63,880 nt of DNA, filler included, from Collodictyon triciliatum (GCA_043381765.1; 5 parts of 5 records of this genome joined end to end with filler, not necessarily neighbours in it); one strand, 5' to 3'; positions 15,287-16,487 are shown, counted from the whole stretch's first letter. Notes: a model not told the origin generated them from the sequence alone. A program made the numbers and translations.

Positions 15287-16487
15287 TTACTCTGTCTGTG
15301 CGATGTGTAAAACGTCTTTCGATAACACGCTCTGTTTTCTCAGAAGCAAGCTATCAATTTTTGTCTTATTCCTGCATAAAGACATCCATTGCTGCATATC
15401 TAGCGCGGCACCTAAGAGAACATGAATTTCATCGAGAAAAGTTAGAATATAGATGATAAGAATATAAATCTTTTGTCTATTTGATATATACAGAAGTTCA
15501 CAATGAAACCTTGCTTTGTTAGCACTTTCTTTCCTGTTTCTTTGTCCACCGCAAATTTCCGAATGTTTACATAGACTTTATTGTTGTAGACAGAAGTGTA
15601 GACAAGCTTGTTTGTGGATATCTATCGTCCGAATTAAAAAAAAAATTTTTTTTAAAAAAAAGAAGAAAACATAATATGAGATTCAATGTATATTCAGTTT
15701 TGGCAGGAAAAGTTGACAAAATGAAAGGAATAAATCGTAGTCTGTAAATCTGAGACTCATATCGATGCTTTTATGCTTTTTATTCTGTATCTACCTCGAT
15801 GGCGTCCTTCAAGTCTAGGTCGTCCAAAAATACTGGCGTCTTTGTCCGCTTCATTGTTGTTTTTAGAAAGTTTAAGTTAGAAGTATGGTAATGAAGAGAA
15901 AAAAATAAGGAAGCTGTTTATTTGATGTTATCGTTTCATTCTCTTTTTTCTTTAGTGTAGATTTGTGCGTGGATATTCTCTCTAAATAAAAGTATGCTTT
16001 TACATGGTTTTGAATCCTATTTTTGAACCCCTGTAGAAATGATATAACAACAGGAAAAGAAAAAGAATCATAATCACATTCATCATATTATTAATCTTTT
16101 TTTTTTTATTCTTCCTTTCAACTTTTGTGCAGGACCGAGGGATCATATTATTAATCATAATAATAATAAAAATAATAAAAATAAAATATTAATAATAATA
16201 TTAATAATAACAAACACCTTCATTCAGAAGTTGCATGAAGAAAGGTAAGTAGTGCCTAGGGAAATGAGTGTTTTCGGTACCTTTGAAGTATTCGAGCCTT
16301 TGGCGTTATCGGTATTGGCTGCAGCGACTTGGTCTTTGTTTGTTTCCTCGTGCTCCTTTGTTTGGTCGAAGTTGTTTGCACCCGCAGAGGAATAAAAGCT
16401 TACAGACACGTGCTTGCTTGCTGCTTGCGCAGATAATGGCAATAAACTTTGCGAAAGTCGACGGCTCTGCTGCATCAATCGCTGCAT
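15287..16487 (-). CDS. PC4/Sub1 (p15)-fold ssDNA-binding protein with a mitochondrial-type presequence
   Basis: Exons 16487-16281, 15848-15795, 15621-15510 and 15411-15287 splice in frame via GT-AG. The C-terminal IEISTNKLVYTSVYNNKVYVNIRKFAVDKETGKKVLTKQGAALDMQQWMSLCRNKTKIDSLL follows the PC4 pattern (..KVxIDIRxY..K..xKGISLxxEQW..L....ID). The N-terminus MQRLMQQSRRLSQSLLPLSAQAASKHVSVSFYSS has no acidic residues. Confidence 0.85.

Follow-up and report, generated by a model that had tools for sequence, protein, structure and literature searches.

A spliced PC4/Sub1-type gene of Collodictyon triciliatum with a presequence-like N-terminal extension: a candidate mitochondrial nucleic-acid binder

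Proteins of the PC4/Sub1 type, human SUB1 and yeast Sub1 among them, are grouped in Pfam family PF02229. In animal mitochondria, single-stranded mtDNA is coated by mtSSB, a bacterial-type protein of the unrelated OB fold whose role overlaps in part with the one considered here. PC4 itself is described as a nuclear cofactor of transcription and genome stability, and organellar representatives of the PC4-like fold are found in Whirly proteins of plant organelles and in MRP1/MRP2 of trypanosomes, all of them of type I, with two beta4-alpha repeats per chain and assembled as tetramers (PMC7549692).

The gene here presented lies on the minus strand of the window, the latter being the whole stretch of Collodictyon triciliatum DNA under analysis (63,880 nucleotides). 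Its product shares with PC4/Sub1 proteins the small size, a single C-terminal PC4-type domain and, ahead of it, a hydrophilic region of Ser, Thr, Lys and acidic residues, as in the general layout of the human protein. It departs from them in (i) an extra acid-free amphipathic leader of ~33 residues, (ii) a very divergent domain, with no pairwise match to solved PC4 chains when short exon peptides are used as queries, and (iii) the loss of the second aromatic residue at the site reading IREYW in PC4 and IRKFA here. The likeness to Whirly and MRP proteins is a functional analogy only, that of nucleic-acid binders with a PC4-like fold in organelles. In contrast to their repeated architecture, a single PC4-type stretch is found within 165 amino acids, PF02229 being the only family matched at E values up to 10, and no homology to Whirly or MRP was detected when the exon peptides were compared with Pfam at that same limit.

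We tentatively propose that a presequence has been added to a PC4/Sub1-type protein, which might thereby act as a mitochondrial nucleoid ssDNA or RNA factor with an altered stacking site. Such a protein would stand for an independent organellar recruitment beside Whirly and MRP1/2, and for the first one in the type II branch, that of the true PC4 proteins.

Gene structure, transcript and allelic variation

On the minus strand, the coding sequence opens with an ATG at 16487-16485 and closes with a TAA at 15289-15287, exactly the interval of the original prediction, and splicing of its four exons gives a CDS of 498 nt, i.e., 165 amino acids plus the stop. Exon 1 (16281..16487, 69 codons), covered by cDNA contigs, encodes the N-terminal extension and a hydrophilic, acidic linker rich in Ser, Thr and Lys. 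It is followed by exon 2 (15795..15848, 18 codons), by exon 3 (15510..15621, 37 codons plus one base), which holds the core of the PC4 domain including IRKFA, and by exon 4 (15287..15411), which contains the remaining part of the domain, where a G..L...QW motif precedes the helix region at the C-terminus, as well as the TAA stop. The three introns of the minus strand, at 15849..16280, 15622..15794 and 15412..15509, measure 432, 173 and 98 nt, respectively, are bordered by GT..AG in 3/3 cases and lie in phases 0, 0 and 1. The GC fraction is 0.44 in exons against 0.26 in introns.

A search of public sequencing runs returned seven with small shares of the sampled words, and the contigs of four of them were aligned to the window. 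Two (X1 and X2) belong to one study, X7 is a freshwater metatranscriptome from a second study, and X3 comes from a third. The contigs of X1 (534 nt), X2 (468 nt) and X7 (230 nt) pass over the introns, with borders identical to those predicted, and that of X3 is confined to exon 1. The joint 16281|15848, which bridges intron 1, is present in contigs of three runs (X1, X2 and X7), and the joint 15510|15411, across intron 3, in contigs of two (X1 and X2). The joint 15795|15621 is absent from the joint table, yet in the X1, X2 and X7 records the two exon sides flanking intron 2 directly abut one another. One end of the X2 contig carries a run of 20 T on the plus strand at 15229, which corresponds to the poly(A) tail of the transcript, and further unmatched ends of the X1 and X2 contigs resemble adaptor sequence from cDNA synthesis. 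Tail and adaptor-like ends together indicate that the X1 and X2 runs are cDNA and, since the exons are joined in these contigs, exon 1 belongs to the mRNA. The predicted assembly of four exons into a protein of about 165 residues is thus confirmed at its borders; absence of a junction between exon 1 and the exons of the PC4 domain had been named as an argument against the prediction, and in cDNA the junction is present.

On the minus strand, the 3' UTR (15229..15286, 58 nt) presents an AATAAA at 15251-15246 and ends in the poly(A) site at 15229, and the 5' UTR (16488..16497, 10 nt) contains no upstream ATG and provides an A at position -3 of the start codon. All contigs preserve an intact ORF, expression is seen in runs of three studies, and we are dealing with a genuine nuclear gene of an AT-rich freshwater eukaryote, the transcript of which is spliced and polyadenylated. 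Regions devoid of read cover, namely the introns and the sequence upstream of 16499, were not taken as evidence of absence.

Within the mRNA, the ATG at 16487 comes first, and the sole further methionine ahead of the domain is residue 5. Inside intron 1, an in-frame ATG at 15854-15852, which precedes the acceptor of exon 2 by only 4 nt, is spliced out; it was rejected as an internal start for a leaderless protein because it is intronic in every contig. No leaderless isoform was seen among the contigs, their depth over 15856-15909 being 0, a figure by which contigs cannot prove absence.

Elsewhere in intron 1, an A/T low-complexity run at 16097-16140 collects many short unrelated contigs of the X1 and X2 runs, with a summed word depth of up to ~3100, and some of the contigs piling there have adaptor-like or poly-T unmatched ends. 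This pile-up is a mapping artefact and not expression of the intron.

The 5' end of the mRNA, as seen, falls on the minus strand at an AG (16498..16499) placed after a pyrimidine-rich tract, a possible acceptor for a spliced leader. The X1 contig matches the window up to 16499 and then continues with 23 non-genomic letters, and the X3 contig, from another study, stops matching at the same position and is followed by 7 unmatched letters. The 23 letters of X1 had no match within the window with up to 3 mismatches allowed, a 17-letter part of them was not found in the literature searched, and they differ from the published leaders of Guillardia, Eutreptiella and C. elegans as given in the excerpts consulted. 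Non-genomic letters starting at an AG may, essentially on the strength of the X1 contig, reflect spliced-leader trans-splicing.

When compared with the window, X1 shows four differences, all of them non-synonymous (4/4), and X2 differs at the two that it covers. Two are found within the leader in the X1 contig, P17S (16439) and K25E (16415), and two near the C-terminus in the X1 and X2 contigs, I161T (15303) and A162V (15300), with all positions referring to the minus-strand gene. No differences are listed in exon 3, which holds the PC4 core, or in the first 100 nt of exon 4, nor do the X3 and X7 contigs differ from the window over the parts that they cover. Changes that are exclusively non-synonymous would agree with both ends of the predicted protein being weakly constrained.

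Kinship of the PC4-type domain

With the exon peptides searched singly, exon 3 alone matched the Pfam PC4 family (PF02229) with an E value of 5e-5, which is calibrated for the whole Pfam library and refers to the exon and not to the spliced domain, and with 23.2 bits, the gathering score being 25. The matched stretch (15529..15618, minus strand) covers profile positions 4-31 of 52, and PF02229 is the sole Pfam family for exon 3 at E values up to 10. Exons 1, 2 and 4, each on its own, had no match in Pfam, so that one of the four exon peptides matches. A match to the PC4 family, as originally claimed, is present, although it extends over about half of the profile and its score stays below the cut-off. 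In the protein-language-model Atlas, the top three clusters for exon 3 are all PC4, with scores of 0.84, 0.83 and 0.82 that, by the tool's own calibration, count as a lead only; exon 4 gave no usable match in the same Atlas. Comparison of exons 3 and 4 with PDB sequences by phmmer returned no PC4 chain at E values up to 10, a weak negative given such short queries, and exons 1, 3 and 4 had no match in PHROGs or NCBIfam.

Beyond the matched stretch, exon 4 displays the G..L...QW motif and then a helix-like stretch, which we take, by eye and across the phase-1 intron, to be in the register of PC4. IRKFA, present in exon 3 as had been noticed, keeps the Arg and the first aromatic residue (IRKF) and shows an A at the W position of IREYW, in a comparison made by motif, with the IREYW of the original prediction and the familiar human PC4 as partners and no alignment behind it. 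The W of this motif is a residue important for ssDNA binding by PC4. With A in its place, stacking probably differs and, with it, affinity or specificity.

PF02229 also occurs in bacteria, with matches above cut-off in 66 of 401 sampled Bacillota genomes, mostly in ORFs of 70-130 aa, and, among 14 control genomes, in Lactococcus lactis only. YdbC/DUF2128 proteins are small single-domain ssDNA binders (PMC3575825).

Both these and the PC4-domain proteins of Bacillota share with the present protein the Pfam family or the fold class, and differ from it in that its gene is eukaryotic in layout, is interrupted by introns and gives a transcript with a poly(A) tail. A profile was built from 30 loci (L081-L110) taken from PF02229-positive Bacillota genomes, of which 29/30 gave an ORF and 29 entered the profile. 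Against these 29 proteins the spliced protein scored 0.6 bits, the best of 2000 shuffles reaching 5.9, and hhalign of the spliced protein with the same profile returned a probability of 0.1-0.2%. Neither this outcome nor the eukaryotic traits of the gene lend support to a recent origin from bacteria. Altogether, the protein is very probably a divergent PC4 of the eukaryote type and not of the bacterial one, as predicted from its domain match and architecture.

A quite different explanation would be that no functional member of the PC4 family is encoded here, the match of exon 3 being fortuitous or a relic, or the gene decaying and transcribed without a role. Such an explanation could draw on the exon 3 score under the Pfam cut-off, on the lack of matches to PC4 chains in the PDB and to the bacterial PC4 profile, and on the four differences out of four being non-synonymous. 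Nonetheless, we deem it highly improbable, considering that (i) the E value of 5e-5 is calibrated library-wide, (ii) the match, as judged by eye, runs on into exon 4 in the expected register across the phase-1 intron, (iii) the ORF is intact in all contigs, with exon 3 and the first 100 nt of exon 4 free of differences, and (iv) transcripts occur in runs of three studies.

The N-terminal extension and its predicted role

The predicted protein is laid out as a basic acid-free leader, then a hydrophilic acidic linker rich in Ser, Thr and Lys, and finally the single C-terminal PC4 domain. Its presequence-like extension, residues 1-33 (16389..16487, minus strand), has a net charge of +4, contains neither D nor E and would form an amphipathic helix over residues 1-18. 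In the allele of the window the first D/E is residue 41, residues 1-40 being acid-free, and SFYSS corresponds to residues 30-34, both in keeping with the N-terminus as first described. The D/E frequency in the rest of the protein is 0.136, and the chance of finding none in 40 residues is ~0.003. Basic residues among the first 40 are R3, R9, R10 and K25, all of them thus within residues 1-25.

Regarding amphipathicity, the hydrophobic moment of residues 1-18 (muH at 100 degrees) amounts to 0.75 in a window of 11 residues, 0.68 in one of 14 and 0.57 in one of 18, values that are reached in 2.1%, 1.6% and 1.3% of the cases, respectively, when residues 1-40 are shuffled 2000 times. Two cleavage motifs were found by regular expression, R-3 at residues 9-11 and R-10 at residues 9-18, which would place the cut after residue 11 and after residue 18, respectively; both motifs are short and of low specificity, and the leader measures are crude. 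The leader was rejected as a signal peptide, since it has no hydrophobic core, and as a plastid transit peptide, the host giving no sign of bearing plastids and having an animal-like gene content. A positively charged amphipathic helix at the N-terminus and an MPP-type cleavage motif are both found, and the leader has, on sequence grounds, the gross properties of a matrix-targeting presequence, a point in which the original interpretation is supported. False presequence scores are frequent among basic proteins that bind nucleic acids, and mitochondrial targeting, as predicted from the leader, is considered plausible, with the chances about evenly balanced.

Because of the K25E change in X1, the absence of acids over 40 residues does not hold in every allele, and the part free of acids in both alleles is residues 1-24. 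This fits a presequence of 18-24 residues, and would also fit a weakly constrained disordered tail. The latter leads to a reading in which the protein is an ordinary, fast-evolving nuclear PC4/Sub1 ortholog, its N-terminal 40 residues being disordered, particular to the lineage, and basic and acid-free by chance, and the 18-kDa protein entering the nucleus by diffusion or through K/R clusters. PC4 N-terminal regions are highly variable between lineages, this particular leader is polymorphic (P17S and K25E in X1), the strong divergence of the domain makes fast evolution of a single-copy gene plausible, and neither a second PC4 copy in the 64-kb window nor a mitochondrial PC4 in the consulted portions of the literature was encountered. 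The leader is, however, more than basic, combining an absence of D/E over 40 residues, against 13.6% elsewhere, with an amphipathic helix at the very N-terminus, and it stands ahead of what appears to be a complete PC4 layout. Moreover, a leaderless form was not seen and the internal ATG is intronic, as far as contigs, which cannot prove absence, can tell. We therefore hold the nuclear ortholog to be a possible, yet rather doubtful, explanation. If the leader is not a presequence, the finding shrinks to a divergent but ordinary Sub1 ortholog.

Between both situations, a weak presequence might distribute the protein, one part being mitochondrial and the other remaining nucleo-cytosolic as a normal cofactor of transcription or repair. 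The finding of just one mRNA form, on which one start is usable, the moderate charge of a leader that has four basic residues only, the E25 of one allele and the fact that many DNA-maintenance proteins are dual-targeted all speak for such dual localization. Sequence by itself cannot separate it from the mitochondrial or the nuclear reading, and we consider it distinctly unlikely.

Returning to the mitochondrial reading, we regard as an even prospect that the leader is a cleavable matrix-targeting presequence and the mature protein a mitochondrial nucleic-acid binder. The leader would direct import via the presequence pathway and would then be cleaved, leaving a mature protein of ~130-150 aa inside mitochondria. 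By analogy with PC4/Sub1 dimers, the mature protein would dimerize, and the dimer might bind RNA, or mtDNA in unwound or single-stranded form, within the nucleoid, where the replacement of W by A at the IREYW site (IRKFA) would alter base stacking and hence affinity or specificity. If this holds true, a true PC4-family protein in mitochondria would be a new component of mtDNA or mtRNA maintenance, and the gene would illustrate with clarity how a protein can be retargeted when it gains a presequence, here one that a separate exon, the first, encodes. No mitochondrial PC4 or Sub1 was found in the open literature searched, as judged from listings and abstracts. Two further elements of the original prediction, that the gene is a paralog beside a separate nuclear PC4 and that its recruitment is Whirly-like, are speculation.

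Relatives and surroundings in the window

A tblastn search of the spliced protein against the 64-kb window found no second PC4, the best non-self match having an E value of 0.99, and no SSB domain emerged from a Pfam scan of 266 sequences (262 window ORFs, in sets of 16, 120 and 126, plus the 4 exon peptides). Homologue searches with the ORF of exon 3 gave two longer candidates, neither of which scored, and no near candidate. Ortholog searches in metagenome contigs yielded 409 pattern matches with the ORF of exon 3 and 595 with exon 1, and those in viral contigs 21, none of them confirmed. Comparison of exon 3 (37 aa) with protein representatives produced a sole match, a tandem-repeat protein (P0001) matched in 7 stretches, which was discarded as spurious. 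Rfam, rRNA and tRNA searches of the window gave 0 matches.

Other genes of the window, of an ordinary eukaryotic kind, were recognized by Pfam through single exons. They comprise, on the minus strand, a mitochondrial carrier (36442-38390), a SWIRM domain (11812-12348) and an FkbM-type methyltransferase (28994-29320), and, on the plus strand, an RCC1-repeat protein (23051-25420), an AP-5 zeta subunit (60159-61517), an ORC winged helix (62849-63331), an HRDC domain (52104-52529) and a core-2/I-branching enzyme (6740-7012).

Also on the minus strand, a B-box zinc-finger ORF (33508-33921) is situated directly upstream of an NHL-propeller ORF of 439 aa (31843-33159), whose best solved relatives are TRIM71 (E value of 3.2e-59) and Drosophila Thin (1.1e-56). 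The combination of B-box and NHL is the architecture of the animal TRIM-NHL type, and both ORFs together (31843-33921) are, as predicted from their domains, a TRIM-NHL-like gene, which, along with the AATAAA signal and the freshwater runs, gives the window an animal-like character. When the NHL ORF was compared with 6147 candidates, 752 matched at E<=1e-20, and among the matches listed only bacterial or metagenomic multi-NHL proteins appeared, with 27-40% identity. Since bacterial NHL proteins show similar identity, the NHL domain alone proves nothing in this respect.

Finally, a long microsatellite or low-complexity tract extends over ~16780-17450, between the PC4 gene and the next gene of the minus strand. 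All six frames of this tract are open for 150-225 codons and translate into dipeptide repeats, (HL)n, (KM)n and (DE)n among them.
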